Source of the DNA: Dehalococcoidia bacterium
Lineage (GTDB): Bacteria; Chloroflexota; Dehalococcoidia; Lucifugimonadales; JAGWBF01
Assembly (NCBI GenBank): GCA_965207935.1
Contig: CBDBNM010000002.1
Location: 77,692 to 141,691 of the forward strand
Direction: 5' to 3'
Length of the DNA stretch: 64,000 nucleotides
Notes under the pieces: generated by a model
What the model was told of the DNA's origin: nothing
Databases searched by the model: none
Seen by the model: the letters and a program-made list of their open reading frames with translations, nothing else
Part shown: positions 7,488-53,305 of the stretch, piece after piece
Layout of the letters: every line of letters begins with the position of its first letter
How positions within the stretch are numbered: the first letter of the stretch is position 1
Position numbers and translations under genes: made by a program

Positions 7488-7550
7488 GGTGTCGTCAAGA
7501 GGAATTGAACCTCTGGCCCCCTGCGTGTAAAGCAGGTGCTCTAGCAACCC
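7488..7550 (-). pseudogene. 3' fragment of tRNA-Val(UAC) lacking the 5' acceptor and D-stem
   Basis: The minus strand reads ...TAGAGCACCTGCTTTACACGCAGGGGGCCAGAGGTTCAATTCCTCTTGACGACACC. That covers the anticodon arm (loop TTTACAC), the variable loop, the T-arm and the 3' acceptor strand. No complementary 5' acceptor strand or D-stem lies upstream. Confidence 0.55.
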
Positions 7551-16754: not shown

Positions 16755-17330
16755 GTGTCTGAACCGGATAGTGGTGGGGGGTCCAAAACGATGGTAAAGC
16801 CCCATAGCGCGCGAAAAGGTCTGGTCATCGTGAATACCGGTGAGGGCAAGGGAAAGACGACAGCTGCCCTTGGCGTGATCTTTCGCGCTTGGGGCAGCGA
16901 CCTCAGAGTCAGGATGTTTCAGTTCATTAAGCACACATCCGCGAGGTTCGGTGAGCATAAGGCAGCTGAAAAACTGGACATCCAAATAGAGGCCTTGGGT
17001 GATGGTTGTACCAGGAATTCGAGCGATTTGGAAAAATCAATCTTACTGGCCAAAGAGCAGTGGATCCGCTGCAAGCACAATATACTTAACGGCAACGAAG
17101 AGATCGTCGTTCTGGACGAGTTCACTTACCCGATGCATTATGGGTGGGTCTCTGTCGCGGATGTCGTCGATACCCTAAGACGACGACCCGAAACGATGCA
17201 CGTCATCATCACGGGTCGATATGCTCCCCAGGAGTTGATTGACTGCGCAGACCTCGTTACTGAGATGAGGTCGATTAAGCATCCCTACCATGACCAGGGC
17301 ATCAAGGCTCAACTGGGAATAGAGCTTTAG
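16755..17330 (+). CDS. cobO: cob(I)yrinic acid a,c-diamide adenosyltransferase (CobO/BtuR family)
   Basis: Motifs GLVIVNTGEGKGKTTAALG, VVLDEFTY and a C-terminus KHPYHDQGIKAQLGIEL typical of BtuR/CobO. Start chosen at GTG 16755, 5 nt after AAGGAGG. The ORF track begins at 16686. Confidence 0.8.
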   Translation: MSEPDSGGGSKTMVKPHSARKGLVIVNTGEGKGKTTAALGVIFRAWGSDLRVRMFQFIKHTSARFGEHKAAEKLDIQIEALGDGCTRNSSDLEKSILLAKEQWIRCKHNILNGNEEIVVLDEFTYPMHYGWVSVADVVDTLRRRPETMHVIITGRYAPQELIDCADLVTEMRSIKHPYHDQGIKAQLGIEL

Positions 17331-19723: not shown

Positions 19724-20710
19724 CTACAGCTGGCGTGGTTCATTTCTTGAATGCTCCCACGTCTCGATGGGGGCCACATGTGGGGGAAGATAACGGTTGG
19801 CTATATCAAGCACCATACCGTAGCGGTGTTTCACCTCGTCTGTCCGATTGTCTGTGCCAAAACCGACGACGGCCCTCAGGCCTCCTGAAAGGCTAGCGAT
19901 ACCGGCTGGCGTCAGCCCGACGCTCAGTCGAGCGTCAACCAATTCCTGGAGATCAACCCTCAGTTCTTCTAAGGCACAGTGCCACTCCCAAACATACTGC
20001 AATAGCTGAAAGGGCGCGTAGAATACCTTGTAATCGTTGGTCTGGGCGTCCTTCAGCTCGATTAGAACCAGGCGCCCCTTCGGATCAACTGCAATCTGAT
20101 CTACCTTCCTAGCTTTGGCACCTATCTCTGGCTCTTTCCATCCCTGCTGCCTAGCCGTTGCCTGTATAGATTTGAGTGCTGCTTTCACCTCAAGGAACTT
20201 CTTGGTCTCTTCTCGATGCTTCGCGGATTCATAGTTAAGGACAGCCTCACGGTCGAAAGGGACCCACTGTTCCGACACTCTTGACCATCGCGATTGGACT
20301 TCGCCCTCTCCCTCTGTGAAACTCGGATTGACGTCCACGACGCTCAGATAAGCCTTAAGCGCCTCGATGAACCCACCGTCGCCAATCCTCCATCGACCAA
20401 AGAGTCCCGTTCCCTTTGCACGTGGCTGGCCCATGTACTTCGGGTCGGCGTAGGCTTTCAGGTATCTTGCAGGTCGTCGTAGCGTTTGGACTGTGAGAAT
20501 AGTCGTCAGCCCGCAGTACACCTGTATCTTGTCATTGACCCGGAAGTGTACGTCCAACTCTGTGCCCTTGAACTCAACCCGGTTCAGGGCCATCACCGGC
20601 GCGAGGAACTCCCCCGGCTTCAGGAGTCCCCGCAACTGCTCGGAAGGAGCACGCGGGTATTTGATTATCGGGGTCGCCATAGCGATCCTCCTAAAGACGG
20701 TATCGAGCAC
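19724..20710 (-). CDS. uncharacterised protein with a C-terminal PD-(D/E)xK-like motif
   Basis: 328 aa with VDQIAVDPKGRLVLIELKD (D...ExK). The N-terminal ~170 aa are unrecognised. There is a 20-nt overlap with the upstream gene. Confidence 0.4.
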   Translation of the reverse strand: MLDTVFRRIAMATPIIKYPRAPSEQLRGLLKPGEFLAPVMALNRVEFKGTELDVHFRVNDKIQVYCGLTTILTVQTLRRPARYLKAYADPKYMGQPRAKGTGLFGRWRIGDGGFIEALKAYLSVVDVNPSFTEGEGEVQSRWSRVSEQWVPFDREAVLNYESAKHREETKKFLEVKAALKSIQATARQQGWKEPEIGAKARKVDQIAVDPKGRLVLIELKDAQTNDYKVFYAPFQLLQYVWEWHCALEELRVDLQELVDARLSVGLTPAGIASLSGGLRAVVGFGTDNRTDEVKHRYGMVLDIANRYLPPHVAPIETWEHSRNEPRQL

Positions 20711-21647
20711 GCATGTAAGCCGCCCAGTCTCTCAATCCTTCAGCCTCGCCGGCGCGGACGACTTCCGATGCAGGAAGAAACGGGGCCATGGCCGTGTCGG
20801 GGAGAAGATGCTTCCAGGCATCCCAATGCTCGGCAATGTCAGTGTTGGCGTCGTGAGCGCATAGTGCGAACCATGCCCGTTCAACCATGTCCTCCTGTTC
20901 AAGGCCACGGGCTATGGCAAGGTTTCGCATAGGCTGTTGCATGTCGTAGGCGAAGGGGCATGGCCCATCCAGGTCGGCATGGGGGAATGCGTTTCTGACG
21001 GAGCCGTGACTCTTGGCGAATATCTCCCAATAGCGTCTGTCCCTACTCTTCCTCCAAGGTCTTCTGAGGTAACAGGCGTCGGGGTCATTCAAGAAGAGTA
21101 CCGCAGAGTTGCAGACATCCTTACGGCGGTTTCCCCGGCTCCGTCGTCCACCGCAATGCGTGAAGCTGCCCTCGCTGAGCTTGACCTCCATCAAGACGAC
21201 AGCGCGGCGGCCATTCTCCAGCCACCCCCATAACGCCACATCTACTCCCGTGGCAGGCTCGTTTTCAGCAGGCCACTCGCCGTCCAGTTCTCCGAGCAAT
21301 CTCCCAGGGGGAATCCACTCGAAACTCAGCCTATCAATGATTAGTTGAGCGCCAACCAGCTCGCTTAGTTGTTCGGACAAGACCTCCCTGAGTCCTTCTC
21401 GGAACGGCAGAAAGAGGTTGAACGCGAATGCCTGTGAGCTGAGTATGTGGGCGACGTGCTCATGCAGCCTGATGGAGTCGGCGCGGGCCGTCGCCTTCGC
21501 TGAATCGCGGTAGGAGTCGTATATTCCGTCCGTCCACCTGGCCCATGCCGGAGGACGTCTGCCGCCGTAGTCGCACCACTCTTCCATGTGCGCTCTAAGG
21601 GATTCAGCAAAGGGTGTTGGTCGGTAGCCGGTCCTATCGTTACTCAT
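20691..21647 (-). CDS. restriction-endonuclease-like (PD-(D/E)xK) protein
   Basis: 318 aa. LSSQAFAFNLFLPF followed by GVDVALWGW...AVVLMEVKLSE gives D...ExK. Confidence 0.45.
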   Translation of the reverse strand: MSNDRTGYRPTPFAESLRAHMEEWCDYGGRRPPAWARWTDGIYDSYRDSAKATARADSIRLHEHVAHILSSQAFAFNLFLPFREGLREVLSEQLSELVGAQLIIDRLSFEWIPPGRLLGELDGEWPAENEPATGVDVALWGWLENGRRAVVLMEVKLSEGSFTHCGGRRSRGNRRKDVCNSAVLFLNDPDACYLRRPWRKSRDRRYWEIFAKSHGSVRNAFPHADLDGPCPFAYDMQQPMRNLAIARGLEQEDMVERAWFALCAHDANTDIAEHWDAWKHLLPDTAMAPFLPASEVVRAGEAEGLRDWAAYMRARYRL

Positions 21648-21698: not shown

Positions 21699-22583
21699 CT
21701 ATACGGCCCTGGTGTCTCCAGTTGGCTGATACCGATATCCGGTGGGAAGCTCGGCGGTTCGCAAGGCCAAATCCATTGCGTTGCGGTCAGCTGCATATAG
21801 CTCTGTAGAACCTTCTATCATCATCCTGTTCAGCGTGTTGACGAACTCCTCACCGCCCTCTTGAGGTGATGGTGCTTGACATCGTAGCAACTGCGCCTCG
21901 GGAGACTTTTCAAAGCTAATCCGGCCGGATTGGCGATCCACTTCTACGACGGGACCCAGAATCTGTCCCGCGTGGCCGTCTGACACAAGGCACAGCCCTG
22001 TGGATGGCGATAGAGGAAACCAAACAAAGGTCTCCCGCTGTGCAGATTCAGCCGTGCTGGCGCACATTATCTTGTCCGATGTGAAGAAGGACTGGGGCTT
22101 ACTCAACACGAGGGGGCACAGCAGATAGTGTGTCAATGTACGCGAGACGCTGTTCACTAGGTCTCGGAAGACCCCGACGTCCTGGTGCGACGTCAGACGG
22201 TTCATCTCCCCTTCGGCTTGTTGTTGGGTGAGCCCTGAAGTTTGACGGCACTTGTCAACAACGTGTTTGATCTGGAGACGACAGGCTTGGGAACGTACGT
22301 AGTGCATGGCGATGAAGTCATAGATGTCACGGCCAACATCCGCCTTTGCGAAATCTCCGTGACTGAATCGGTAGAGGGTGTCTTTGAACCCGTTTTCGAG
22401 GTCCGTTATGTAATCGTCAACACCCTTCGAGCAATCTACTTCGAAAATCCCGACACCTCTGATGGATCGTTCCGTTGGTCGATAACTGGACGTGTTCAGG
22501 TACCAGGTTTCCCAAGAATTGGGCTGGCGGCCCACAAATGAGAAGTTCCGGAGTAGCTGTCGCTGAATCCTGTGCTGCCCCAT
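21699..22583 (-). CDS. DUF4238-like protein
   Basis: The N-terminal QHRIQRQLLRNFSF resembles the H-x-[IV]-P/Q-x-x-x-L-x-x-F opening motif of DUF4238. 294 aa. Confidence 0.4.
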   Translation of the reverse strand: MGQHRIQRQLLRNFSFVGRQPNSWETWYLNTSSYRPTERSIRGVGIFEVDCSKGVDDYITDLENGFKDTLYRFSHGDFAKADVGRDIYDFIAMHYVRSQACRLQIKHVVDKCRQTSGLTQQQAEGEMNRLTSHQDVGVFRDLVNSVSRTLTHYLLCPLVLSKPQSFFTSDKIMCASTAESAQRETFVWFPLSPSTGLCLVSDGHAGQILGPVVEVDRQSGRISFEKSPEAQLLRCQAPSPQEGGEEFVNTLNRMMIEGSTELYAADRNAMDLALRTAELPTGYRYQPTGDTRAV

Positions 22584-22585
22584 GG

Positions 22586-23014
22586 CTACTGGCTTGCCTC
22601 TGTTCGACGTGTCTCGACCTCCACTGACAAGAATCTTGGGGCGTTGAGGATTTTCGCACCCTGATGTTCCTGGAGGGGCAACAGATGCCGCCGATCACCG
22701 GTCACGAGGTAGTCGGCGGAAGCCTCCACAGCGCACTCCAGGATGCGGTTGTCCGCATGGCATCCCTCAATCACCTCCGGTAGCCGACGGGGGTAGATTA
22801 CTGTCCCGGCGTTCCCCAGCGCTCTGAGCACCTGGGACGAGCGTTACTCATCCCAACCGAACTTACGCCCTAGCACCCCGGCAGCTTCCTCCAAGATGAA
22901 GGTGGACAGGTAAAGCTCGAACCGACCCCTGAGTGCCAGTTCAAGCACAAGGCGTTCATTGCCAGGGAAGTTCAGGCCGGAGACGATGACGTTGGTGTCG
23001 AGGACGACCCTCAT
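22586..23014 (-). pseudogene. PIN-domain toxin (PIN_3-like) interrupted by an in-frame TAA
   Basis: The ATG at 23014 overlaps the antitoxin stop (ATGA). Translation gives MRVVLDTNVIVSGL...GRKFGWDE, then TAA at 22844-22846, then the same frame continues ...ILECAVEASADYLVTGDRRHLLPL. Confidence 0.7.
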
Positions 23015-23268
23015 GCACGGGCCGAGCCGATCTCGGCCCGGTACTCTTCCACCAGAGCGGCCACGTCTTCAGGCCCGATGCCCTTCGCCCTGGCCCGCTC
23101 CTCTCCGTACCGGAGAAGCTGTCTCCACTCCAACTCCTCGATGTAGCGCAGCAGCGCCTCACGAAGAAACTCGCTCCGGGACCGTCCCTGCTGCTTCATC
23201 ACCGCGTCCACCCGGTCGGCCATGTCCGGCGGCAGGGAGAAGGTAATGGTCTTGGTGGTTCGCGACAT
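23011..23268 (-). CDS. ribbon-helix-helix (CopG/MetJ-type) antitoxin
   Basis: 85 aa. KTITFSLPPDMADRVDAVMKQQGRSRSEFLREALLRYI is a typical RHH. It has a 4-nt overlap with the PIN gene. Confidence 0.75.
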   Translation of the reverse strand: MSRTTKTITFSLPPDMADRVDAVMKQQGRSRSEFLREALLRYIEELEWRQLLRYGEERARAKGIGPEDVAALVEEYRAEIGSARA

Positions 23269-23439
23269 GAATCACCTCTTGTTAGTCAGTCTTACCCAGA
23301 GTATGGCGCTATCTGCGGCTCACTGTCAATCGGTTCACGCACCAGACCGGCTTCCTGCGCAGACCCGCCTCACAGGGCGCGAGATTCGCAGGGTTGTCGA
23401 GGGGGTTGTACCCGTGTACAACAATCATGAGAAAGTAGA

Positions 23440-26400
23440 CGAGAAGCAGTCGGAGGGTATCGTAGCTGAAATCGGGGTGAATGGGGCATCCTGCTAAATC
23501 GCAGCGAGCAATCCGGTTCCGGGGTTCGCTCCACGGTCATGGGGCAGCCGCAGCTAGGAGATGGGGCAAGTGGAACATGGCGTTTGCGGAAGTTATGGGG
23601 CAGCGCCAGCTACGGAATGGGTCAAGTGGAACATTGATGCCGAAGAGAAGCAGAAGTCGTGGTCCTGAGCCGTTCAGTCCGCGTTCTCGCGCTTCGCAGG
23701 CGGCCTGGGGGCAGGCAGAGATTGAGACGCCTGATGCCGAAGGTGGGCGCGGGCGATCATTCGGGCCGGGATGCGCAGGCCGCGCCGCACCGTCTCCTGC
23801 TGCTCGACGGCGCACGCCTCAGCCCGGCGATCTGTCGATTGACTTCTCTCGTTGGCGCTTCTCATATTGCTCATCCCGCCGGCGTTTCATGGGCCGGGTG
23901 TGCGTTCCAGTCTGAGCGGTCGAGACGCCGGGCGTAACTGCCTGTACGACTAGTCACATGAGCGCCCATGTAGGGCCTCGGGCCAGCGAGCACTTCCGCG
24001 ATGCCGGTGGGCGGTACAGGGGATGGAAGTTGGTTGGAAAAATCCAAGTCGGGTCATTTCGTAGCTGATGCAGGGGCGAATCCGCCTCTACAGGCCGTAA
24101 CCAGTGAACAGTTCGACTTGCGGGTACGTTCCGGTCTGGAGTTGGATGCGCCGTAGCTAAGAGTTGCGTTTATGCAAGTGGCTGAGGTCGGGTCTGAGTT
24201 GGAAGGGCCATAGCTGGAAGTTGGAATTATGCGCGGCGAGGGAAAGGCCGCCGTCGGGATCGGTAAGCAGGCGAAGAAGGCTGCGGCGGGCGTCGTCCGG
24301 GATGTGGGGATGGTCGCCAGGCTGACACATGGGACGGTCGCACAGCCTGAATGTGTGGCCTACGGTTCCCGATTATTCGCTCGTGGCCTCGCACGTCGGG
24401 CTGGACGAGATAAGCGATGACAAGTCGTTCCTGCCCGTCACATCGAGCGGTGCGTGATGGACGCGCCAATGAAAGGGCGGATGGCGGAAACGTCGATAAC
24501 GGGGCCGGAGGGTTGTACAGAGAATCGGTCATTCGGACGGAGATGCGGAATGTACGCTGAGCGCGGTGGTGTAGGCGTTCGCACCACAACCTGGTCAATC
24601 GGAGGAAGCGATTGGTATGAAAGGGCCGGTCGCAGGGCCGTGTGCAGGCGCTGTAGCTGAGATGTGCATCGGTCGATGGCGGAGCGGTCATGGTCGTGCG
24701 CATTCTCCGTAGCTGGGATGTGCATGTTCTCGTGGAAGTCGAGCAGAATCCGGCGTTCGGGTTAGATACGAGGGCGAAGATGGCGGGCTGGCCGATTTGG
24801 GTGGCCTCATTGTGATACGTCAGCCCGTCGATATCGTCGAAGAGGTCGTCGAGGACATGGGCGACGAGGTCTCCGGGTTAATCAGCGGTCCCGCCGGTTT
24901 TGCAACGAAATGCACTTTTGGGAGCTGTTGGGGGCTGACACGGTAAGTGAGGGGAATGCCCTTTCGTCCCCTACAGGAAGTCCTGGGAACGGCTTCTGCG
25001 ACAATTTGGCAGCAAGTTGCGAGGGCTTCGTGTCGTCCGTTGGGTGACGATTCTGGGCAGGGCTGCGTAGCTATGAGTCGTAGCTGGTGGAGAGGGGGAC
25101 GAGAAAGCGTGCTGACAACCCCTGACCGGTGGGCTCTGCAACGGATTGTACTCGGATGGGCGGAATGGGAGATACGTGACCGATCGCGTCTGCAAGTTGT
25201 CCCAGCAAAGCTGCTGGGAGAGGCCCTATTGGAAGTGTCCGGAACGGAAAAGGCGGCCATGGTTGTACCTGATGCATCAGGGCCAGGGGCCTTCTGTCGA
25301 GGGCAGTGTGGCGGTAGCATCCATGCGTCACCCATGACGCCATGTTCGGCAGGAGCATCGACGTTGGTGGTGATGATGGGCACGTCGCCCTCCCCGTCGG
25401 CGATGTCGAGGAAGGCGGTCTCGCTGGCGGGAGACTCGAAGACGAATAGCACGTGGGGCAGATGTCCCTTCGTTGTCCCGTTAAGTGTAGGCGCTGCTTG
25501 ATGGTCATAACCCCTCGCATGGCGCTGTCACATGTGTCACCCGTTATGGCGTGCGGGGTTCTGGGGATCGCCGACGGTGCCGAACCCGTGTACAGAGATT
25601 TGGAGTTGGTGGTCAAAGTGTCATCGGGTCGTGGGCAAGCTGATTGGGAGGAGAAGGCCGCCTACAGGATCATTGCGGGAAGCACTTTGATTCCGGAGTT
25701 CCTTCCACGGTCATGGGGCAGTCGCAGCTAGGGAATGGGGAAAGTGGAACATGGCGGTTGGCCGGGATTGTGGGGCATTGCCAGCTACGAAATGGGGAAA
25801 CTGGAACATGGACGCGAAGACGGCTCGGAACGAGCAACGGACACGGGACACGAGGGTGTCGGTGGTGATGCGTAGAACGCGGCGACGGCGTCCTGGTTAT
25901 TCACGATCATCAGCCTGAGCACGCGATGCGGGACGCTGTGCGTGATCTCGCGGGCCACGTGTTGGGAGAGGCCGAGCGTCAAGGACGGCAGGACGGCGTC
26001 AGGCTCATCTACGACGTGAGAGCGTGACCGGGCGGACGCCAGGGACGACATCGTGGAGAAAGCTGGCGTTCACGACGCCGGCGGTGCCCCCGTGATGAAC
26101 ATGGCGGGAGCAAGCGATGGGGAGTCGAGCCCAGGGGCAACGTCTCTAGCCAGAAATTCACCGTGCCGTCGATCATGGGCTGATGCGTCAGACTACAATC
26201 GCCCAGGGGCGGTCTTCGGCCTGGGAGGGCTGTAAGGGGGATCGGAGTTAGTCGCAGAATACAATCTGGGTGATATTCGTAGCTGAATGAAGGGGAATCG
26301 GGGCGAAGCGAAGGGAATCCAGCGAGCAGTTTTACTGCGGCTCTATCGCAACTATATTGCACTGATTGTATTGTAGGAATTGTACTTTCTGAGGCATGAC

Positions 26401-26730
26401 GACCCAAGCGGTGGGCCATGATGAGCCTGTCGATGGACGAAGCGGCGGGTTTCCGGCGACGGCGTGAAGCCCCCTATTGGACAGCCCCTACCGGACCCTG
26501 GCGGACGCTCTGGTGGATGATTGAGGCAAGGTGTCTGCTGCTGCCGAGGCTCTGATGGGGTGAACTACCGTACGATCGCCGCAAGCTGTGAAACCGGGCG
26601 GGAGACGCGCCGGACGATGAAGGGGGTTTGGGGCAAAGAGAGTGCTGTAGAGGACTGATATTCGGCTGGTAGCTTCAGTGCGAGATGGTGAGATGGCCGC
26701 CTTCCCCGTGGGAGCCATCGGCATGTTCTT
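23440..26730. repeat. ORF-poor tract of about 5-6 degenerate tandem modules (~0.5-0.65 kb) carrying a recurring GTAGCTG / CAGCTA(G/C)G..ATGGGG..GTGGAACAT motif set
   Basis: TAGCT/AGCTA-centred motifs occur at 23463, 23552, 23608, 24062, 24154, 24211, 24654, 24710, 25068, 25081, 25726, 25783, 26280 and 26670. Four motif pairs are spaced 56-57 nt apart. Segments 23526-23640 and 25700-25815 align over ~110 nt. Confidence 0.6.
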
Positions 26731-29700
26731 CTAGCTACGCGCCAACCCATCTGGCCCCACTACGAGTTCCCAGGCCACCAGTTCCAAGTCCTCGACCGAT
26801 GGTTTCCTGGTCTCAGGTCGTGCGATAGGGCGGTCAAGTCCTTCGGCTTGGACAGCCCCTCGGAGCGCAGTCAGCGCCTGAACCACTTGCCCTTGTTCTG
26901 CACGAGTTGGCGCAAGCCGGTTTATGACTCTCACCGGGTCTCGCATTACCACGCGCCTGGTCGCGTCCGATGGTAACGGCATTTCAACCCACTCGTTGAA
27001 GAAGCTGAATAGGTCGGGGTGAGATTGCAATAGGTCGTCACGATTGAGGAACTGTCTAATGCGTCTCGTGAAACTGTCGGATGTAACTGCGGATATGGCG
27101 TCCAAGTATGCTTGGCCGATCTGGTCCACGGCGGCTTTCAGAGGCTCCTTTAGGTGTTTGAATGGGTTTTCGTTAGGCGGTATCTCGAAGCGGTGCTCAT
27201 CTCTGCCGGCCTCCACAATGGATAGGACATCACTTGGCGATGTCAGGGGTTGCGCCACGTTGCCCAGTGGATAGAAGCGCCAGAACACTTCGCCCGACGC
27301 CTCTTCGGGCATTTTCAGCATGACGTAGACACCGTTCGCCATGCCCTTCTTCACACTGTAAACCCCGTTGGGAATGTCCCGTACGTCCTCGGTAGCGAAC
27401 TCCTTCATCATGTCCAGATACCTGTTCAGCAACTCCGCGCCCGCGTCCAGTCCCTGGCTTCGCTCGCCCTCTCGGTACACGTGGTCCGCCTGGACTCCGC
27501 CGGCTCGCAGCTGCATCACCTTGTCCAGTTCCTTCGCCTCAATCTGCTCACCGAGCACCGAGGCGTCCAAAGCGACCGCCTCCTCTATGGTCTCAATCTT
27601 CCTTGTCAGGTTCTGAACCAGATTCAGTAGGTCTTCTAGGCCGTGCTCAGGCATCAGGTTGTAGATGTACACCTTGTCGTGGGGAGAAAACAGGCGGTCG
27701 ATGCGACCAGCCCGTTGGATCATCCTCACCGGGTTCCAGGGCAGGTCGTAGTTGACCAGGAACTGGGCATCCTGGAGGTTCTGGCCCTCCGAGAGTACGT
27801 CTGTGGCTATCAACAATTCGATGCCCTGCGCTCTCAGAGGCTCTATCTTCCTAAGAAGGGCGGGATCATCCAGAGGTTCGGTCTCGCGATGTGCTGCCAA
27901 GGGCGCGAACCGCTCAAGCACCGAACGCCTCCGATTCCGGTCATCTCCGCCGGTTAGCAGGGACATCCACCGTGCATCCTTCAGATTGCTCTGAACGCGG
28001 ACAGTGCTCTTCAATGAGTCCACATCTCCGCCGAACTGCTTAAACAGGTGTTGGGCGGTGTCCTTGTAGGTCGTAAACAGGGCTACCTTGGTGGGTTGCC
28101 CTTGGTCATCCTCTTTTGGCAGTCCTTCGAGCAGCTTGCGCACAGCCTGGGCCTTGGGGTCGCCCTGCTCGGCCAGCATCTCCTCCAGCCACTGAAGCCG
28201 AGTGAGAAGCGTCTGAAGCCTGTCCCGGTCGAACTCCACATCTGCCTGCAACCGCCCTCGAAGGTCCACGTCCTCCGGCGCAACAAGTTCCTGTTGCAAT
28301 GCCGCCACTGCCTTGGGGTCCATGTCCTCTAGGTCCTGGTCGTGGTCGGGCAACGAACCCCCCAGCACACCCCGCAGCTTGTATGCCTGCTTGGGGGTCA
28401 GGACATGTCCCTGATCCAGCCTCGCAAGGAAAAGGTTGAGATAGTCTACTAGACTTCTCACCGTGGACGTGAGCGCGGCCAGGGAACTCTCCATGCGCTT
28501 CAAGAGGATGGTGCGCATGATGCCGACGAAGTTGGCGTTGCGTTGCTTCAGTTGTGCGCTGGTCTCCTTCTCACCAGTCTCAACGCCGTACTCGTCCAGG
28601 CGGTAGACGGCGAAGTTGAGGTGCTCAATGGCGTCGATGATGTCGTGGTAGATGTTTCCATACAGGCCTTGCAGACTGTAGTCCACCGCCTTCGGTATCT
28701 CGTGTTCCGGGAAGCGCAGCGGCTGCCCATTGACCTCCATCGTCTCTCCTGCATCCTGCATGGACCGGATGTCGTGACGGGTTCGGCGTACGAGGGACAG
28801 CATCATAGTGTCCAGTAGGCCGGAGTCGGACTCCCCCTTCTCAATGGCCTGGAACGCCGTTTTGAGGTTGGGTATTGGCCCTCGCCCTGCGTACCAGGTG
28901 TCGTCTCCCCTCGTGATGAGCATGAGCTGGTGATACATATCCCAGACGGAGTTGTTGATGGGCGTGGCTGTCATCAGCACCACCCTGGTGTCCGGTTTGC
29001 CCCCTCGGATGATCTCCATAAGGGCGCGGTAGCGCTTCGTCCTTGGGTTGCGGAAGTTGTGGGACTCGTCCACCAGGATGACGTCGTACTGGTCCTGGTA
29101 ACGCTTCAACTCGGCCCGGAGCCGCTGCCGTTGAACGGGTGACGGCTCCTCGTCGATGTCCACGAGGCTGGGAAGCGACTCCATTGTGACCGTGGTGGCG
29201 ATGATTCCCCACTCTGCGAACCTGTCGGTGCTCCAGTTGTCCTGAAGCTGGGCGGGGCAGACGATCAACGCCCGCGTGGAGGTTCTCGCTCGCTGCGGGT
29301 CATCGCTCCGCTGGTTGGCGAATTCCCTCAGGATGCCCAAGCCTTCGTAGGTCTTGCCTAAGCCCACCGAGTCGCACAGCATGGCCCCCCAGTGGCGTCT
29401 CAGCAATGCTACGCAGCGTTGGACGGCCTGCTGCTGGAATCCGGCCAGCCTCCCCATGACTTCTTCCGACAGCCCCATCTCCAGGAACCGGCCGTAGGCG
29501 GCATGTAGTGACTTGAGCATGACCTGCCACGGGGTGTAGCGCCTCCCGAACAGGACACACTCTTCTAGGCGCTGGACGAACTGTGCCTTGCAGTCCTGGC
29601 CAAGCTCCCACTTCTCGTCGAACCAGCCTTCCAATTGCACCGTCAGGTCATGGTCGTAAGAGGTCAGGTTCAACTCGGAGTTCTCGGATAGGCCGCTCTT

Positions 29701-30303
29701 GGTTAGGTTGCTGGAGCCGACGGCGGCATATCGTCCCATCTCGCCGGAGAACAGGTACGCCTTGGCGTGAAGTCGATTCCTCGGCGAGCGGTGGTCCAGC
29801 ACCTGTTCGGGCAGCACCTTTCCTCTATCGGACCCGAGGAATCGCCTGACCTCCACCCCGTCCTTTCTCAGGAAGTCGGCCAGCGTAGTGACCCGCTCCC
29901 ATGCGGACAGGTCGAAGGCTGCCGCCTCCGGCGTCACTCCGCGTGCCAGAAGCTCCCGCCGTTCCTCGTGAGTCAGCAGCAGCCACGGGTAGCCGCCTTC
30001 GAGGAAGGTGTACCAGTCCACGGACTCCTCTGGGCCTCGAAGCTCGTCGCGGTCGCCGGGTTGGGACAGTACGTCTCCCGGCCCACGCCGATTCATGAAG
30101 GGCCGTTCTCCCAGCAACAGCCGCACTCTGGCGGCTCCCTCCATGCCATGCTTCAGGTCTAGGAATCCATCGGGTGTCAGGTATGCCGTTGCGATGCGAA
30201 TGTCCTGAGGGATGACGCGAGCCAGCGCACCGAATAGATGCTCCCGCATGAAGCCTGTTGTCGGCTCGTTGGCAACTGGAAGGACGTCTGTCTCATTGGT
30301 CAT
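26731..30303 (-). CDS. PLD-family (HKD) nuclease domain fused to an SNF2-family helicase
   Basis: 1190 aa. N-terminal motifs: IRIATAYLTPDGF...RLHAKAYLF...VGSSNLTKSG (HxK...GSxN). Then SNF2 motifs: DSVGLGKTYEG, ILVDESHNFRN, LMTATPINNS, ATDVLSEGQNLQD and WNPVRMIQRAGRIDR. Confidence 0.9.
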   Translation of the reverse strand: MTNETDVLPVANEPTTGFMREHLFGALARVIPQDIRIATAYLTPDGFLDLKHGMEGAARVRLLLGERPFMNRRGPGDVLSQPGDRDELRGPEESVDWYTFLEGGYPWLLLTHEERRELLARGVTPEAAAFDLSAWERVTTLADFLRKDGVEVRRFLGSDRGKVLPEQVLDHRSPRNRLHAKAYLFSGEMGRYAAVGSSNLTKSGLSENSELNLTSYDHDLTVQLEGWFDEKWELGQDCKAQFVQRLEECVLFGRRYTPWQVMLKSLHAAYGRFLEMGLSEEVMGRLAGFQQQAVQRCVALLRRHWGAMLCDSVGLGKTYEGLGILREFANQRSDDPQRARTSTRALIVCPAQLQDNWSTDRFAEWGIIATTVTMESLPSLVDIDEEPSPVQRQRLRAELKRYQDQYDVILVDESHNFRNPRTKRYRALMEIIRGGKPDTRVVLMTATPINNSVWDMYHQLMLITRGDDTWYAGRGPIPNLKTAFQAIEKGESDSGLLDTMMLSLVRRTRHDIRSMQDAGETMEVNGQPLRFPEHEIPKAVDYSLQGLYGNIYHDIIDAIEHLNFAVYRLDEYGVETGEKETSAQLKQRNANFVGIMRTILLKRMESSLAALTSTVRSLVDYLNLFLARLDQGHVLTPKQAYKLRGVLGGSLPDHDQDLEDMDPKAVAALQQELVAPEDVDLRGRLQADVEFDRDRLQTLLTRLQWLEEMLAEQGDPKAQAVRKLLEGLPKEDDQGQPTKVALFTTYKDTAQHLFKQFGGDVDSLKSTVRVQSNLKDARWMSLLTGGDDRNRRRSVLERFAPLAAHRETEPLDDPALLRKIEPLRAQGIELLIATDVLSEGQNLQDAQFLVNYDLPWNPVRMIQRAGRIDRLFSPHDKVYIYNLMPEHGLEDLLNLVQNLTRKIETIEEAVALDASVLGEQIEAKELDKVMQLRAGGVQADHVYREGERSQGLDAGAELLNRYLDMMKEFATEDVRDIPNGVYSVKKGMANGVYVMLKMPEEASGEVFWRFYPLGNVAQPLTSPSDVLSIVEAGRDEHRFEIPPNENPFKHLKEPLKAAVDQIGQAYLDAISAVTSDSFTRRIRQFLNRDDLLQSHPDLFSFFNEWVEMPLPSDATRRVVMRDPVRVINRLAPTRAEQGQVVQALTALRGAVQAEGLDRPIARPETRKPSVEDLELVAWELVVGPDGLARS

Positions 30304-30331: not shown

Positions 30332-30724
30332 CTACACTGAAACGATGCTCAGCCCCCGCATCCGCTCGAAATGCTGCGTGTTGTTGGTGAGCAGCGTCAG
30401 GTTGTTGCTTATCGCTGTGGCGCCTATCAGGATGTCCATATCTCCTATGAGATTCCCTTCTTCTCGCAGCCTGGCCCTTTCCGCGCCGAAGACCCGGCAG
30501 GCTTCATCGTCCAGCGGAACCACATTCACCGCTTCCAGGAACAGGCGCAGCGCCTCGGAGTCGGAATAAGGATTTCGGGATCGGGCCAGACCCTCGTAGA
30601 GTTCGGCCAAGGAAATTATGCTCATGCCGACTCCATCGGGCAGGAGTGCCTCCAACCGCCTGGCCGTTCTATCGGCCCTGTGCAGGTAGTCGATTGCCCA
30701 GTCTGTGTCCACGAGATACTCCAT
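30332..30724 (-). CDS. vapC: VapC-type PIN-domain toxin, with no separate antitoxin gene upstream
   Basis: 130 aa with YLVDTDWAIDYL, SLAELYEG, IGDMDILIGATAISNNLTLLTNN and HFERM. It starts 11 nt after the methyltransferase stop codon. Confidence 0.85.
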   Translation of the reverse strand: MEYLVDTDWAIDYLHRADRTARRLEALLPDGVGMSIISLAELYEGLARSRNPYSDSEALRLFLEAVNVVPLDDEACRVFGAERARLREEGNLIGDMDILIGATAISNNLTLLTNNTQHFERMRGLSIVSV

Positions 30725-30735
30725 GACGTTGGTTG

Positions 30736-33700
30736 CTAGAGCCTTGGTACGGGCCGCGTGCGGATGTCTCGGCTGGCGCGGATGTCTCTAATCAGTTCAT
30801 CCCCGTCAACACTCCATTTCCATGCACCGGCGGAGGCTTTCAAGGTGTTTAGTTTCCTCCAGTCCGACGGCATATCGGCACCCAACGCCTCGCGGCGTTC
30901 CCCAAGCCAATCGAGCATCAGTTTCCGTTCAGAAGCAGACAAGTCATACACATGAAAAACGATGGAGTCAATCTCCCGTTCGATACCCTCCAATTCTTCA
31001 GGCGAATTCTCAAAGCCAACTATTTCGTTTCCAAGCCGCTCGAGTTCAGCTTGGGCTTCGGTGCCGGGGGTTACGATAGGAGTTGGCTCGATGTAGCCAA
31101 TCTTGAACTCCTGAAACGAACCCCCGCGTGCAACCGTCAGCTTTGGGTAAAGGAAGTTGAGCACCGAAGAATTCATCATTGGCAACAGCCAACGCACTGG
31201 CTCAACTAGGAAGTTGGCAGGAGCGGAAATATACGCTTGGGATGTGTCTCTGGCAAATTTACTCTCTACTGCGAGGTTCCCCCACACAACTTTGGGGTGT
31301 TCGAACTCATGATAGAGACCCTCCTGCGGCTGTTGAAGCTCGTACCACGGGTGTAAATGTGCCGTAGCCCGCTCCTCAAGGTCGCTGCGAAACCACCTCA
31401 GATGGTCTCTGATGGCAGGATACTGATCTACGTCTACCCCACGACTCGTGAAGATGATGTAGAGTCCCGGTGAATGTGCCTTCCACCGCTTGATGTCCCG
31501 TCCGCGTAGCCACGGCTTGATGAGCTCCGCGCTTCGCGGGTCGTCCTCAATCAGTTCGTCACGCTTGTCCTGGTCTATGACGAACGCCTCGTTCAGACCT
31601 GTCTTGACGCCGTAGTACATGCGCCTATTGACGAACTCACCCAACGGAGTGCCCAGATTCATCAGCCGCTCGAAGAGGCGTATCAGGGCAGGATCTTCCA
31701 GAATCCAGCCATCCTTCTTCAGCATGACTTGGGGGAAATCGCCAATTGCGACCCTTGCGAGCAGCCCATCCAAGTCCTCCAACATGCCTCGCACCCTCTC
31801 GGTGTTGATTCTAAAGTCAGCTTCGGAGAGTTCCTTCCTAACGGGGGCGGATAGGTCGGCGACGGTCAGTGCGTGTCCCGCCATGTCATCTGCCCGGCGA
31901 CCCACTAACACAGCCGGGTACGCCGCGATAGCTTTGCCATTAGCTTCGAACAGAGGTAGATCGCCGAAATCGATTACGCTCTTTATGCGTAGTGAATTGG
32001 GCAAGTGTCCGCGGGTCCCCGCTCCATAGCCAGCCCGCATGTATTTGTTGCTGGTAATGAAGGCCAGCCAACCGCCGGGTCGAAGTAGTTGTAAGGCACG
32101 CGCGTAGAAGTAAACGAGGAGGTCCGCCCGTGAAGCGGCCACCTCCGGGAATGCCTCTCCATAGAAGAGTTCGTCCTCGTTGTCGATTCTCTCCATACGC
32201 ACATAGGGCGGGTTGGCAAGAACGATGTCGAAACCTGCCTCGGGATCGCCCTGTTGCAGGACATTGGGGAAGGCAACCGGCCACAGGAAGGGCTTCTGCA
32301 CTAGCGCGAAGTCCGTTGACTCCACTCCATCTCGAAGGGAGCGAATGCGCTCCATGAATCGGTCGGCTCTCCTCAGCGCGGCCTTACTGGGCTTCTCGGC
32401 TTTTCGTAGAGCCGCCCGCTTCTCCTCGGCCTTCCCCAGCGCATCTGTTAGGTGCAGAAGGATTATCTCCCGCTGGTCGCGGGCGATCAGGTCTCGCAAT
32501 TCACGGAGACGGGTCGGGTTTCTGTGTGTCCTCTCGAACTCCCTCCGCCGTTGGTCGATGTTGCGCTCCAATCTCTGGAGGCGGCTCTGGAGTTCCATGT
32601 CCAGTTGTATGCTTTTGGGCGCGGGCCAAGACTCCTTGAAGGTCACGCCCGCCACCCCGTCTACCAGCGAGTCGCCAGCCAGAATCTGAAAGTCCAGGTT
32701 GGGCAGTGCCCAATCGGAGTTCGGTTCAGGCGGCTCATCCATGTCCAACACCATAGAGAGCCAGAGGCGCAAGCGGCATATCTCAACGGCCTCAGGATTG
32801 ATGTCCACTCCGTAGAGGCTGCTCTCTATGATGCGCCGCTTCCATTCGCTCACTGTCCGGTAGAACTCGTTAGGCTCGACGTGGTTGCGCTGAGAGAAGA
32901 GAATCCCGCGACGCAGGGTCACCATCTCTTGGATGGTTCCTAGTAGGAACGCCCCTGAGCCGACGGCCGGATCGCAAACTCGCACCGTTTCCATCGCGTC
33001 GATGAGCGCATTAGCTGGGAAGTCTGGCAGAGGCTGATGCTCGTCCCTGGAACCAACGGCCTCTTGGCGCAGGGCCTCCAGGGTAGAATTTTCAACGCCG
33101 GTGGCATCACGCAAGTATCCGTCCAGGGCCTCCCGACACATGAAGTGGACAATCTCACGAGGGGTGTAGTAAGTGCCGGTGTCGTGACGCTCATCCCCCT
33201 GGTAGAGGTTCTCAAAGACCCGGCCTAGTAGCTCAGGATCTGGGTCAACGGATTGGTCGTCCGGCGTTGACTCTCTGGTGGTGAACCGATAGCGAGAAAG
33301 CAGGCCGAGGAGGGTTCGCTGCTGGCCTTCTTCACTATCGGCATCGGGGTCGAACACTTCGTCCGGCAGGGACACCTGCCCCGCGTCGTCGATGCGATCC
33401 TCCAGCGCGTTCCGACGGAACAGGCCACCATTTAGGTAGGGGACGTATCCCAGGACTGGGTGTTCGCTCCTACTGCTGCTCCCCGTCGCCATCGCATCGA
33501 AGAACATCGGGGTCAGGATGCCGCGATAGTATTCGCCCTCTTGCGTCTCTGCCCGTTTGTCCCAAAGATTCAGCAAGTAAGTCGGCGAACCCATCCCTCC
33601 GGGTGCTCCCAGCCAACGCTTGGCCTGAAGGAACCAGAGAAAGAGCACCCGGCCCATCTGTCGGGTGGCCCAGGCGCGGGCCTCCTCCTCGCCGAGAGAA

Positions 33701-34374
33701 GTGATTACGGGATGCTCCGGGTTGTGGGCTAGGAGCGCCTTGGCTATACGGTCCCGGACGGCGGCATACTCCTGGTAGAACCTGGTGGTTACGCGCTCAA
33801 CGCTGAATTGTTCTTGCCACAGTCTCGACACTTCCAAGAGGCTCGCCTCGTGCGGGATGCGCAAACCGCGCAGCAGATCTCGATGGAACCGAGTCGGCTT
33901 GTCCAAGTCGAGGTGGGCACGGACGCTGGTCACAGACCCGTTGGAAGCCCTAATCTGCGTGCGGGGAAAGACCAACTCAGCCTCGCGTCGCGAGTCGTTG
34001 GATGGAGGAACCAACAAGGCTAAGGCCCGCCTGTCAGGTACATGTTCTACCAGAGCGCGGGTGATGCGCCTTCGCGACCGATCCCTATCTGACGATTTGT
34101 AACCCCAGTCCGAGAGTACGCCGATCCACAGTCCAGCTTCCGCCGGTTCTGCCTTGCAACTCCCTACCCGATAGAGTTCGCTTACCCCGAAGCCTCCGTC
34201 GCCTCGGCCACGCAGAAACTGTTTGAGTCCGCCAGAAAGAGCACCAGCCAATCGGTCCTCTGGGCTCGGGACTGGGTCGAAACCCAAGAACGCGGCCAAG
34301 CTCCCCGCCCTCTGGGGATCGCCGCCGAAGTCCTGAAGGATACTGGCTACGTTACCGTCAGCGCCTAAAGTCAT
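30736..34374 (-). CDS. large N6-adenine DNA methyltransferase (Eco57I / type IIG / BREX PglX-like gamma class) with extra N- and C-terminal regions
   Basis: 1212 aa. Motif I is VCDPAVGSGAFLLG and motif IV is VLANPPYVRME. A TaqI-C-like region follows. The usual family C-terminus (VYDLSASERKLM) is followed by ~50 additional residues. Confidence 0.9.
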   Translation of the reverse strand: MTLGADGNVASILQDFGGDPQRAGSLAAFLGFDPVPSPEDRLAGALSGGLKQFLRGRGDGGFGVSELYRVGSCKAEPAEAGLWIGVLSDWGYKSSDRDRSRRRITRALVEHVPDRRALALLVPPSNDSRREAELVFPRTQIRASNGSVTSVRAHLDLDKPTRFHRDLLRGLRIPHEASLLEVSRLWQEQFSVERVTTRFYQEYAAVRDRIAKALLAHNPEHPVITSLGEEEARAWATRQMGRVLFLWFLQAKRWLGAPGGMGSPTYLLNLWDKRAETQEGEYYRGILTPMFFDAMATGSSSRSEHPVLGYVPYLNGGLFRRNALEDRIDDAGQVSLPDEVFDPDADSEEGQQRTLLGLLSRYRFTTRESTPDDQSVDPDPELLGRVFENLYQGDERHDTGTYYTPREIVHFMCREALDGYLRDATGVENSTLEALRQEAVGSRDEHQPLPDFPANALIDAMETVRVCDPAVGSGAFLLGTIQEMVTLRRGILFSQRNHVEPNEFYRTVSEWKRRIIESSLYGVDINPEAVEICRLRLWLSMVLDMDEPPEPNSDWALPNLDFQILAGDSLVDGVAGVTFKESWPAPKSIQLDMELQSRLQRLERNIDQRRREFERTHRNPTRLRELRDLIARDQREIILLHLTDALGKAEEKRAALRKAEKPSKAALRRADRFMERIRSLRDGVESTDFALVQKPFLWPVAFPNVLQQGDPEAGFDIVLANPPYVRMERIDNEDELFYGEAFPEVAASRADLLVYFYARALQLLRPGGWLAFITSNKYMRAGYGAGTRGHLPNSLRIKSVIDFGDLPLFEANGKAIAAYPAVLVGRRADDMAGHALTVADLSAPVRKELSEADFRINTERVRGMLEDLDGLLARVAIGDFPQVMLKKDGWILEDPALIRLFERLMNLGTPLGEFVNRRMYYGVKTGLNEAFVIDQDKRDELIEDDPRSAELIKPWLRGRDIKRWKAHSPGLYIIFTSRGVDVDQYPAIRDHLRWFRSDLEERATAHLHPWYELQQPQEGLYHEFEHPKVVWGNLAVESKFARDTSQAYISAPANFLVEPVRWLLPMMNSSVLNFLYPKLTVARGGSFQEFKIGYIEPTPIVTPGTEAQAELERLGNEIVGFENSPEELEGIEREIDSIVFHVYDLSASERKLMLDWLGERREALGADMPSDWRKLNTLKASAGAWKWSVDGDELIRDIRASRDIRTRPVPRL

Positions 34375-34877
34375 GACGCAGACTCCACACCGTCAATGAT
34401 CTTAACTGTGGCGTGCTCGAAATCCATCCCGAACTTCGCACAGTCAAACGGATCGGGATAGACGATGGCCCTGTCAGGTTCCTTCGGAAACTTCACGGGC
34501 AGCCACCGCTCCACCTGCACGTTCTCCTCCCTAAACTGCTGCAGGACCGCCAGCACTCTCTTGGCCTCGTTCACCGCCCTGTCGTAAGTGGGATGCTCAG
34601 ACTGATAGTCGGGGAACGGTAGACCTAAACCCCACCCCATGAACCCAACCCTGTACCTAATCATCTCATTCGCGAGTCGCTTCATCTCAGCGTCAGTCAA
34701 CTCGTAATGCTCCCTGATAGCCTCGGCACTGATGCGGTACTCGCGGGCGGCACCCTTTACCCGTACCTTGGACGCCTCAAGCCGTCCATCTACGATTCGC
34801 TGGCGGACAGCCTGGGGCGTGATCCCAAAGAATTGGGCCACTTCAGGCACGGTGTACATTCTCTCTTTGGTCATCAC
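34371..34877 (-). CDS. excisionase/MerR-type HTH DNA-binding protein with an unknown C-terminal domain
   Basis: MYTVPEVAQFFGITPQAVRQRIVDGRLEA is an Xis-family HTH. It has a 4-nt ATGA overlap with the methyltransferase start and lies ~240 bp from the right junction. Confidence 0.65.
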   Translation of the reverse strand: MMTKERMYTVPEVAQFFGITPQAVRQRIVDGRLEASKVRVKGAAREYRISAEAIREHYELTDAEMKRLANEMIRYRVGFMGWGLGLPFPDYQSEHPTYDRAVNEAKRVLAVLQQFREENVQVERWLPVKFPKEPDRAIVYPDPFDCAKFGMDFEHATVKIIDGVESAS

Positions 34878-35114: not shown

Positions 35115-35148
35115 GGTTCTTGATTTTATCAAGCTTGGTGGGCCCGGA
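35115..35148. repeat. right junction (attR-like): GGTTCTTGATTT, 8 nt, then TTGGTGGGCCCGGA (the 3' end of tRNA-Ile)
   Basis: GGTTCTTGATTT is the exact reverse complement of 17383-17394. The core overlaps the tRNA acceptor/CCA end. Confidence 0.5.
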
Positions 35149-35212
35149 TAGACTCGAACTATCGACCTCGGTCTTATCAGGACCGCGCTCTAACCACCTG
35201 AGCTACGGGCCC
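35136..35212 (-). tRNA. tRNA-Ile (anticodon GAU), CCA encoded
   Basis: The minus strand folds as GGGCCCG TA GCTC AGGTGGTTA GAGC G CGGTC CTGATAA GACCG AGGTC GATAG TTCGAGT CTATC CGGGCCC A CCA. Confidence 0.9.
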
Positions 35213-53039: not shown

Positions 53040-53305
53040 GCGCCTGATAAAAAACGACCCGTCCTACAAAGGGACGGGTCGTCTCCCGCGGTACCACCCT
53101 TATTCTCGGTGATGTAAATCACCAGAGCACCTCTGTGACATTAACGGCGTCGACCGCCCTTCCCTACGCTGTAGCCGGAATCCCGGTACGTTCAGGAGGG
53201 CCGCTCCGGGGCGAGTTGGGGATTTCGCTGCCGCCGGCCTTCCACCTGTGGCCGGCTCTCTGGGGGCGCTATATCCCTACTACTCCCCTTCAGGCGCGGT
53301 ACTAT
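53040..53305 (-). promoter_or_regulatory. T-box riboswitch leader of the ilvBNC-leuACD operon
   Basis: The minus strand contains AGGGTGGTACCGCGGGAGAC (the conserved T-box sequence, 53081-53100). It overlaps the 5' arm of a strong terminator, GACGACCCGTCCC-TTTGTA-GGGACGGGTCGTTTTTTAT. Upstream are an AGAGA box and a GGTGGAA distal motif. Candidate specifier codons are CUC (Leu) or AUC (Ile) within GCGAAATCCCCAACTCGCC. Confidence 0.7.

Follow-up and report, generated by a model that had tools for sequence, protein, structure and literature searches.

How is a toxin gene kept silent within a defence operon that holds no antitoxin gene for it? This question is raised by a locus from a Dehalococcoidia bacterium (assembly GCA_965207935.1, contig CBDBNM010000002.1, positions 77,692 to 141,691), a stretch of 64,000 nucleotides (nt) that we call the window and whose numbering is used for all positions in it. 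Four genes on its minus strand make up the operon; they encode an HTH_17 DNA-binding protein, an Eco57I-family DNA methyltransferase, a PIN-domain VapC toxin, and a PLD nuclease joined to an SNF2 helicase (Table 1). An earlier sequence-only reading of the window, made without database searches, noticed that the methyltransferase ends in an antitoxin-like tail directly upstream of a VapC that lacks its own antitoxin. It left two possibilities, either that the methyltransferase doubles as the antitoxin or that a small antitoxin is translated from an internal in-frame methionine. Homology, co-occurrence, selection and co-variation now support the existence of such a tail, and the first possibility is the best supported of the two by these comparisons. 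We propose that the methyltransferase is probably a covalently tethered antitoxin that holds VapC off, thereby coupling immunity to a suicide or dormancy toxin.

The methyltransferase tail and its free counterparts

The methyltransferase is assigned to the Eco57I/Type IIG-like family by its catalytic domain, S-adenosylmethionine-binding and NPPY motifs, and TaqI_C domain (Pfam Eco57I 1e-33, N6_Mtase 3e-10, TaqI_C 3.5e-9), with DPAVGSGAFL and NPPY (ANPPYV) visible in the protein. In PADLOC it matches REase_MTase_IIG (7e-97) as well as DrmMI, and its nearest relatives are Type IIG/DrmMI/PglX-like enzymes. The C-terminus reads ...IVFHVYDLSASERKLMLDWLGERREALGADMPSDWRKLNTLKASAGAWKWSVDGDELIRDIRASRDIRTRPVPRL and is followed by a TAG stop at 30736-30738. 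Between this stop and vapC lie 11-12 nt in L003-L011, compared with 4-5 nt in L043, L046 and L047 (L numbers denote the loci compared here). No other minus-strand open reading frame (ORF) of at least 20 amino acids (aa) ends beside vapC, and neither an AF2212-like nor another antitoxin N-domain is detectable anywhere in the window. The ORF listing and the N-domain scan thus agree with the initial observation that vapC follows the methyltransferase after 11 nt and has no antitoxin gene of its own.

Homologues of VapC were compared at 39 loci, in a scan with one genome per species. Directly upstream of the eight closest (66-85% identity, all from Dehalococcoidia metagenome-assembled genomes, MAGs) stands a methyltransferase of ~1210-1250 aa with the same tail. 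Upstream of the homologues that are 45-64% identical (L012-L040, L042) there is, in every locus, a small ORF in the antitoxin position, and 0-12 nt separate free antitoxin and toxin in these pairs. Most of the small proteins match the AF2212-like N-domain PF01954 (1e-11 to 6e-6), whose family, COG2880/DUF104, has been described or predicted as PIN-associated antitoxins (PMC2701414). Their common C-terminal segment, AAGxWkG.iDgeeLKr.iYeaR..gsR, can be aligned with the methyltransferase tail, as in the pairing of acidobacterial AFGKWKGTIDAEALIRNIYADRLISTRPEPKL with SAGAWKWSVDGDELIRDIRASRDIRTRPVPRL of the methyltransferase.

Across 20 fused and free tails, residues G1183, W1185 and R1202 never vary, and the motif AG-x-W...D..E-L-I..I..SR, which the sequence-only reading had linked to VapB-type antitoxins, is real. 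A hidden Markov model (HMM) built from the free antitoxin tails only, with no methyltransferase sequences, matches methyltransferase residues 1174-1211 at E=6.1e-8 in a search of all 1210 six-frame segments of the window (second-best match, E=2.4). The suspected resemblance to antitoxins is therefore borne out. Among 150 related methyltransferases, the same HMM recovers the window protein (E=7.5e-9) and two other clear tail-bearers (1e-12 to 1e-13). The tail module is also found on at least three unrelated small N-domains, namely the AF2212-like domain, a 90-aa 'VRWMVSFWH' domain and a third type in L049 and L050. Overall, antitoxin C-terminal tails appear to be portable modules, carried here by at least three small N-domains plus a 135-kDa enzyme.

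Two side observations concern proteins of this kind. The small antitoxin-position proteins with the third N-domain (...ARLAEEVRAS..PR.LE.DG...AM.TP...), both metagenomic, lie at L049:58-366 and L050:2716-3033 and end in the tail AGxWKGL[IV]DGEQLK. In L049 this tail overlaps the start of a VapC homologue (43% identity), and a search for a VapC match in L050 gave none. Separately, the C-terminal half of the HTH_17 protein (residues ~72-147; window 34374-34877) weakly resembles the N-domain of 130-150-aa antitoxins that bear the same tail ('VRWMVSFWHPDG...AREEAARVLIELREER...PDPFEVG'; L016, L025, L027-L029, L033, L039). This resemblance is suggestive (BLASTP 32% identity over 62 aa, E=0.016; hhalign probability 29%, E=6e-4).

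To locate the point at which related methyltransferases end, residues 400-1212 were searched exhaustively, without a profile, against 1.84 billion representative proteins, and 21,571 relatives emerged. In 146 of the 149 best representatives, alignment to the window protein runs as far as about residues 1144-1171, and the relative itself terminates a few to ~25 residues on. Typical endings of the tail-less relatives are ...LYGLT..E..LIE... or ...W[FL]..R[SR]L plus a short acidic run, and a comparable tail occurs in only three of the 149 best representatives (P0125, the fragment P0140 and the 51%-identical P0127). The claim that the window protein passes the usual end of Eco57I-like enzymes (...ERKLM...) accordingly holds. 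Its estimate of ~50 added residues does not: the antitoxin-derived part is ~40 aa, because the ~16 residues past ...KLM (LDWLGERREALG) are also carried by the tail-less relatives P0126 and P0315 and are still methyltransferase-derived. The stretch WLGERREALG (WLxxRRxALG) before the junction is common to the window protein and these two relatives, and the fusion junction appears to lie near ...ALG/ADMPSDW/RKLN.... The nearest tail-less relatives (P0128-P0148) end in ...LIDxWFxRRSL followed by a strongly acidic run of 10-20 residues (e.g. DEDEAGDD), and the antitoxin tail of the fused clade occupies the equivalent position.

A single origin of the fusion is favoured by the shared junction P-x-[DG]-W-R-x-[LV]-[NT]-A-[LI]-R-A. 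In a neighbour-joining tree of VapC the main fused clade is monophyletic, with L043 and L047 elsewhere on short, unsupported deep branches; this tree was not used to choose between one and several fusion events.

The tail and the toxin gene occur together. A PIN gene lies directly downstream of the tail in 16 of 16 loci (the window, L001-L011, L043, L046, L047 and L048). The gene order HTH-methyltransferase-vapC-PLD/SNF2 is conserved among related loci. In tail-less L044 (61% identity) and L045 (51%), PLD-SNF2 directly follows the methyltransferase, there is no PIN gene, and a search of all frames found no tail remnant. A homologous methyltransferase with the tail but lacking a PIN neighbour, which the sequence-only reading held to count against its proposal, was not seen among these loci. 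In L043, both the methyltransferase (53% identity) and the tail have diverged; methyltransferase, tail and VapC are all there, but the 5 kb downstream of vapC contain no helicase gene.

Among uncultured Dehalococcoidia, fused loci are widespread. At least 12 independent assemblies, some of them complete MAG chromosomes, contain the fusion in frame, and every examined locus whose VapC is at least 66% identical is of this type. Distinct VapC clusters at 67% identity or above number more than 100 among the matches listed. A word-indexed database returned at least 24 distinct tail-bearing methyltransferase C-terminal fragments, in a search that lists matches of roughly query-like length and is unsuitable for counting full-length tail-bearing enzymes; the same kind of search with the tail as query gave four short ORFs, which are methyltransferase fragments broken by errors in 1x-3x contigs. 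A metagenome scan with the 60-aa window tail gave no matches, and one with a closer tail alignment gave three loci only.

The tail is under strong purifying selection. Across ten fused loci, in which synonymous sites are almost saturated, the last 45 methyltransferase codons have a ratio of nonsynonymous to synonymous substitution rates (dN/dS) of 0.066 and vapC has one of 0.092. Tail divergence also follows that of the toxin. In pairwise identities over the 16 fused loci, tail and VapC are correlated (Spearman rho 0.83, Mantel p=2e-4), whereas tail and adjoining methyltransferase C-terminal domain are not (rho 0.06, p=0.35). In L046, for example, identity to the window is 82% for the methyltransferase and 91% for the helicase, as against 65% for the tail and 48% for VapC. 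This co-variation suggests that tail and toxin have travelled as one cassette, by inheritance or exchange, inside a methyltransferase/helicase backbone that is itself conserved.

Table 1. Features of the defence operon and its surroundings, in window positions.
Feature	Position	Strand	Basis or remark
Large serine recombinase	17175-18935		
REase-ARP/PD-(D/E)XK nuclease	20691-21647		
DUF4238 protein	21699-22583		
PLD(HKD)-nuclease + SNF2 helicase, 1190 aa, presumed restriction effector	26731..30303	-	Pfam PLDc_2, SNF2-rel_dom, Helicase_C
PIN-domain VapC toxin, 130 aa	30332..30724	-	Pfam PIN 6e-16
Spacer from methyltransferase TAG to vapC ATG, 11 nt	30725..30735	-	No Shine-Dalgarno-like sequence
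Antitoxin-derived tail, residues 1173-1212 (RKLNTLKASAGAWKWSVDGDELIRDIRASRDIRTRPVPRL)	30739..30858	-	Free-antitoxin tail HMM; presumed VapC-binding/neutralising segment
Last methyltransferase-derived helix and fusion junction, residues 1153-1172 (MLDWLGERREALGADMPSDW)	30859..30918	-	Holds both proposed internal Met codons
Eco57I-family (Type IIG/PglX-like) N6-adenine DNA methyltransferase, 1212 aa, with TaqI_C specificity domain	30736..34374	-	Pfam
HTH_17/excisionase-like DNA-binding protein, 168 aa	34371..34877	-	Pfam HTH_17 3e-6; first gene of the operon
tRNA-Ile(GAT)	35136..35212	-	ARAGORN and Rfam; abuts the operon head

Proposed neutralisation of VapC and its alternatives

The toxin looks active, its acidic catalytic residues D6, E44 and D98 being intact in the alignment. 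NCBIfam VapC models match it under their cut-offs, and its nearest PDB entries are the tRNA(fMet)-specific VapCs 6nkl, 3zvk, 3tnd and 6ifc (E=1e-14 to 6e-9). The second-best of these matches is R. felis VapBC2 (3zvk), in which an antitoxin Trp sits in a toxin pocket and the C-terminus of the antitoxin occupies the groove that connects both active sites (PMC3326315). By analogy, this complex is a plausible model for the invariant W1185 and the Arg-rich end of the tail.

An AlphaFold2 (AF2) model of residues 940-1212, based on 85 aligned sequences, has a confident specificity domain, with predicted local distance difference test scores (pLDDT) above 90 to about residue 1179. A helix at 1147-1163 is followed by a coil at 1164-1171 (ADMPSDW) and then by the tail, which forms short helices at 1172-1182 and 1191-1203 and has pLDDT values of 67, 61, 57 and 43 by successive block. 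The tail looks flexible in this model; low confidence on top of a confident domain is as expected for a segment that folds upon binding its partner.

From these data we propose an origin and a mode of action. In a two-gene restriction-like defence system, a canonical VapBC cassette would first have settled between the gene for the methyltransferase and that for the nuclease-helicase. Fusion in frame would then have swapped the antitoxin N-domain for the whole 1170-aa methyltransferase, leaving the ~40-aa toxin-binding tail at its end. Translation of vapC probably proceeds by coupled re-initiation after the methyltransferase stop, since the 11-12-nt gap has no ribosome-binding motif and relatives of vapC start with ATG, GTG or TTG. 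The tail would capture the newly made VapC much as VapB tails do, with W1185 anchored in a hydrophobic pocket and the Arg-rich end filling the acidic groove of the active site, and VapC would stay inactive, held on the methyltransferase. If the methyltransferase were removed, degraded or occupied, for instance when the locus is lost, by proteolysis or by a phage anti-restriction factor, VapC would be set free, cleave tRNA and halt translation. The outcome would be either abortive infection, as with PrrC/EcoprrI, or post-segregational killing that stabilises the island.

Two loci bear on the origin. At L012:5670-6390 and L013:5682-6393, a free AF2212-like antitoxin and a VapC that is 62-64% identical to that of the window are flanked by distant homologues of the Eco57I-like methyltransferase (27-29%) and of PLD-SNF2 (28-30%). 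This shows that VapBC cassettes repeatedly lodge within this kind of system, and the two loci may represent a possible pre-fusion arrangement.

Several points weigh against a tethered antitoxin. Neither the tail nor the tail profile has a meaningful Pfam (E<=10), NCBIfam or PDB sequence match of its own. The tail and the last 78 methyltransferase residues are without a Pfam match even at E<=10, and what they share with the free PF01954 relatives is only the C-terminal extension, outside the Pfam domain. The small upstream proteins count as antitoxins by position and family annotation, and the toxin-binding role of the tail is put forward from analogy and comparative evidence. Physical linkage, with breakpoints between the specificity domain and the tail, could by itself yield the co-variation of tail and VapC, so that this co-variation is supportive of binding specificity rather than proof of it. 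The fourth acidic position of the PIN domain is a His in the whole VapC family, free toxin-antitoxin (TA) pairs included. In P0073, a natural frameshift chimera that joins the first 28 tail residues to VapC, the tail part has a pLDDT below 50, too low to speak for or against binding. Finally, a stable 135-kDa antitoxin is ill-suited to the usual release mechanism, which relies on a labile antitoxin.

Other explanations of the tail can be weighed against the same observations. The second possibility left by the sequence-only reading was that an antitoxin peptide of ~45-60 aa is translated from an internal in-frame start in the 3' end of the methyltransferase gene and that the full-length enzyme is irrelevant to neutralisation. 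The window does have two in-frame ATGs, at 30918 and 30873 (MLDWLG and MPSDW), the ATG of MP(P/S)DW is present in eight of ten aligned loci, and gene callers on error-ridden contigs called ORFs of 45-92 aa here. These codons are not kept as starts, however: the Met of MLDWLG is GTG, GTC, GTT or ATT in relatives, and that of MPSDW is ATA in L005 and L002/P0001 and GCT in L003. Upstream synonymous sites vary freely, with no conserved Shine-Dalgarno-like motif before either Met, and the short tail-only ORFs are methyltransferase fragments that result from in-frame stops or frameshifts in contigs of 1x-3x coverage. A sigma-70 consensus scan placed two sites, both more than 300 nt upstream of the internal Mets, although this is a weak test in that the consensus is not informative for Chloroflexota. 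A tail-only peptide would, moreover, have no folded or dimerising N-domain, unlike all free antitoxins seen. We consider internal initiation unlikely. Alternatively, proteolysis could cut the tail from the methyltransferase as a free peptide antitoxin, or the tail could act as a degron that frees VapC. Antitoxin tails of type II TA systems are typical protease substrates, which lends support to such processing, and the AF2 coil (residues 1164-1171) separates the last methyltransferase helix from the low-confidence tail. Yet the operon has no recognisable cleavage motif or dedicated protease gene, and a plain linker explains the conservation of the junction equally well, which leaves processing distinctly improbable in our estimate.

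The tail might also bind VapC chiefly so that the toxin serves the methyltransferase/helicase complex as an active effector, for example by cleaving RNA at sites where foreign DNA is recognised, rather than to silence a suicide toxin. In nearly all loci vapC sits between the modification and restriction genes, and PIN RNases are listed as accessory effectors in BREX and BREX-related loci (PMC12839542). We judge recruitment very improbable nonetheless, given that segments homologous to the tail occur in bona fide antitoxin-position proteins of TA pairs that stand alone, outside any defence context, that the equivalent segment blocks the active site in solved VapBC complexes (PMC3326315), and that L043 combines methyltransferase, tail and VapC without the nearby helicase gene. 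Least credit goes to the idea that the tail is a functionless fusion scar or an artefact of assembly or frameshift, with VapC inactive or neutralised otherwise. Several related contigs are indeed low-coverage long-read assemblies with obvious frameshifts, and the tail belongs to no database family; but the fusion recurs in frame across independent assemblies and complete MAG chromosomes, the tail combines low dN/dS at saturated synonymous sites with three positions invariant in fused and free tails alike, and VapC is under purifying selection with its catalytic residues kept. A scar or artefact is largely refuted by these observations.

If the methyltransferase is a tethered antitoxin, what would the tether be for? 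A guard or backup role fits by analogy, in which an attack on restriction releases VapC and leads to abortive infection. An addiction role fits as well, in which loss or disruption of the methyltransferase gene unleashes VapC and so stabilises the island. In its most specific form, the tether would be a hard-wired guard: a phage anti-restriction factor binds, unfolds or degrades the methyltransferase, and the freed VapC cleaves initiator or other tRNA and aborts the infection. We offer this last version tentatively, as a possibility we rather doubt. Were it true, it would be the first visible link of the type 'immunity protein = antitoxin', in the form of a transplanted antitoxin peptide, and antitoxin tails would be portable leashes by which a toxin could be tied to any sentinel protein of the cell.

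A disrupted locus is anecdotally consistent with guard and addiction roles alike. At L046:2469-7706, the methyltransferase gene is split by an insertion sequence (DDE_Tnp_1) and vapC is interrupted mid-gene by a short duplication and a stop. The coverage of this contig is 5x and sequencing error is possible; the pattern is consistent with inactivation of the toxin after loss of its tethered antitoxin.

Island setting and neighbouring features

The gene for tRNA-Ile(GAT), the likely integration site, bounds what appears to be an integrated island that carries the operon. Housekeeping genes (GNAT, cyclase, SfsA, OMP decarboxylase) begin right after the tRNA gene, and the serine recombinase and other nuclease genes lie 8-13 kb beyond the tail end of the operon. 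The HTH_17 gene overlaps the methyltransferase start by 4 nt, and its product has a weak mad1 match in PADLOC. It is kept upstream of the methyltransferase in L003, L004, L007 and L008. In L009-L011 (complete MAG chromosomes, ~1914-2387), the HTH_17 gene is apparently broken by stops or frameshifts, and methyltransferase, tail, vapC and helicase are intact.

At the other end of the operon, the PLD-SNF2 gene begins 28 nt past vapC. Its product matches the PADLOC candidate family 'HKD+Snf2' (2e-50) as well as DrmD, and it is 86-93% identical to the window protein in most related loci and 75% in L047. The junction between vapC and the helicase gene is a cargo hotspot. Insertions here include a 311-aa protein with a 163-aa predicted membrane protein (L004:6469-7895), a DUF2806 protein (L047:5722-6597), and an IS66 transposase with other ORFs (L003:6459-9421); the gap in L006-L011 is similar in size to that of L004. 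The window and L048 have no cargo at this junction, and vapC and helicase gene are spaced by 28-33 nt.

Directly downstream of PLD-SNF2, ~4 kb of DNA (22600-26730) has positive GC skew and no convincing ORF. This region holds two copies of a segment (23464-23634 and 25638-25809, 2174 nt apart), each containing a tandem pair of 43-nt units (GTCATGGGGCAGCCGCAGCTAGGAGATGGGGCAAGTGGAACAT) with a spacing of 56-57 nt, and gave no Rfam match at E<=0.1. Elsewhere in the window, the minus strand features a 2099-aa ORF (10052-16351), a T-box leader (53067-53301, 107 bits) and a second, weak tRNA-like match (7490-7548) that was reported by Rfam only and not by ARAGORN.

Comparison with known systems

The closest relatives of the toxin-tail pair are VapBC systems with AF2212-like antitoxins (PF01954, DUF104/COG2880). 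Both feature a PIN/VapC toxin, 45-64% identical between the window and the free pairs, with an antitoxin element upstream that bears a homologous tail; binding of the toxin by this C-terminal region would follow from homology. They differ in the rest of the antitoxin. In VapBC systems it is a small protein whose N-terminal domain, AF2212/AbrB-like in these pairs, serves DNA binding or dimerisation and autoregulation of the operon; the place of this domain is taken here by a 1170-aa DNA methyltransferase. No AF2212-like, AbrB, RHH or Phd domain was found in the methyltransferase or elsewhere in the window, and in place of an autoregulatory DNA-binding domain on the antitoxin, the operon opens with the separate HTH_17 protein.

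The backbone of the operon resembles Type-2 BR, modules of an N6-methyltransferase with HKD-SNF2, and the DrmMI/DrmD pair of DISARM, all of which combine a PglX/Eco57I-like methyltransferase with a Swi2/Snf2 helicase that bears an N-terminal HKD (PLD) nuclease (PMC12839542). The core of Type-2 BR consists of a DUF499 ATPase, an N6-methyltransferase and an HKD-Swi2/Snf2 helicase, and PIN RNases are noted as occasional 'backup suicidal effectors' in BREX-related loci; a methyltransferase-borne antitoxin tail is not described there (PMC12839542). Neither a DUF499 ATPase nor a DUF3780 gene turned up in the operon or in the scan of ORFs at 17175-38504, and the NCBIfam and PADLOC scores of methyltransferase and helicase are far under the system-defining (BREX, DISARM equivalog) cut-offs. 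Filing the operon as BREX, DISARM or Type-2 BR was rejected for these reasons.

Toxin and antitoxin can also share one polypeptide, as in CapRel-type systems, where both are fused in a single chain. Antitoxin elements are modular and can recombine with different partners, according to work on hyperpromiscuous antitoxin domains (PMC10440598). In such systems the antitoxin element is fused to the toxin or stays a small dedicated protein, whereas here it is carried by a third-party immunity enzyme. Full-text searches of a literature body without subscription-only papers turned up no antitoxin tail joined to a methyltransferase or any other immunity enzyme.

Restriction-modification, BREX-like and CRISPR loci commonly contain toxin genes that have no antitoxin. 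To our knowledge, PrrC/EcoprrI is essentially the sole worked example of an immunity protein serving as antitoxin, and its interface is not recognisable from sequence. It was the example given in a 2012 hypothesis by which embedded toxins have the immunity proteins themselves as their antitoxins (PMC3506569). PrrC is kept latent by the Type Ic enzyme EcoprrI and released when phage inhibits that enzyme (PMC1484252; PMC12707154; PMC3506569). As in that system, an RNase toxin gene without its own antitoxin lies here inside a modification/restriction operon. The toxins are unlike, PrrC being an ABC-ATPase/HEPN-type anticodon nuclease under GTP/dTTP control and VapC a 130-aa PIN protein. With the link between immunity and toxin readable from sequence, the 40-residue tail makes a long-standing hypothesis testable, and it suggests a sequence-based route to other immunity proteins with hidden antitoxin tails. 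EcoprrI masks its toxin without a recognisable antitoxin motif, whereas a VapB-type peptide appears here to be grafted covalently onto the methyltransferase; we therefore regard the system as an analogue of PrrC/EcoprrI and not a member, with its silencing and triggering proposed by analogy.

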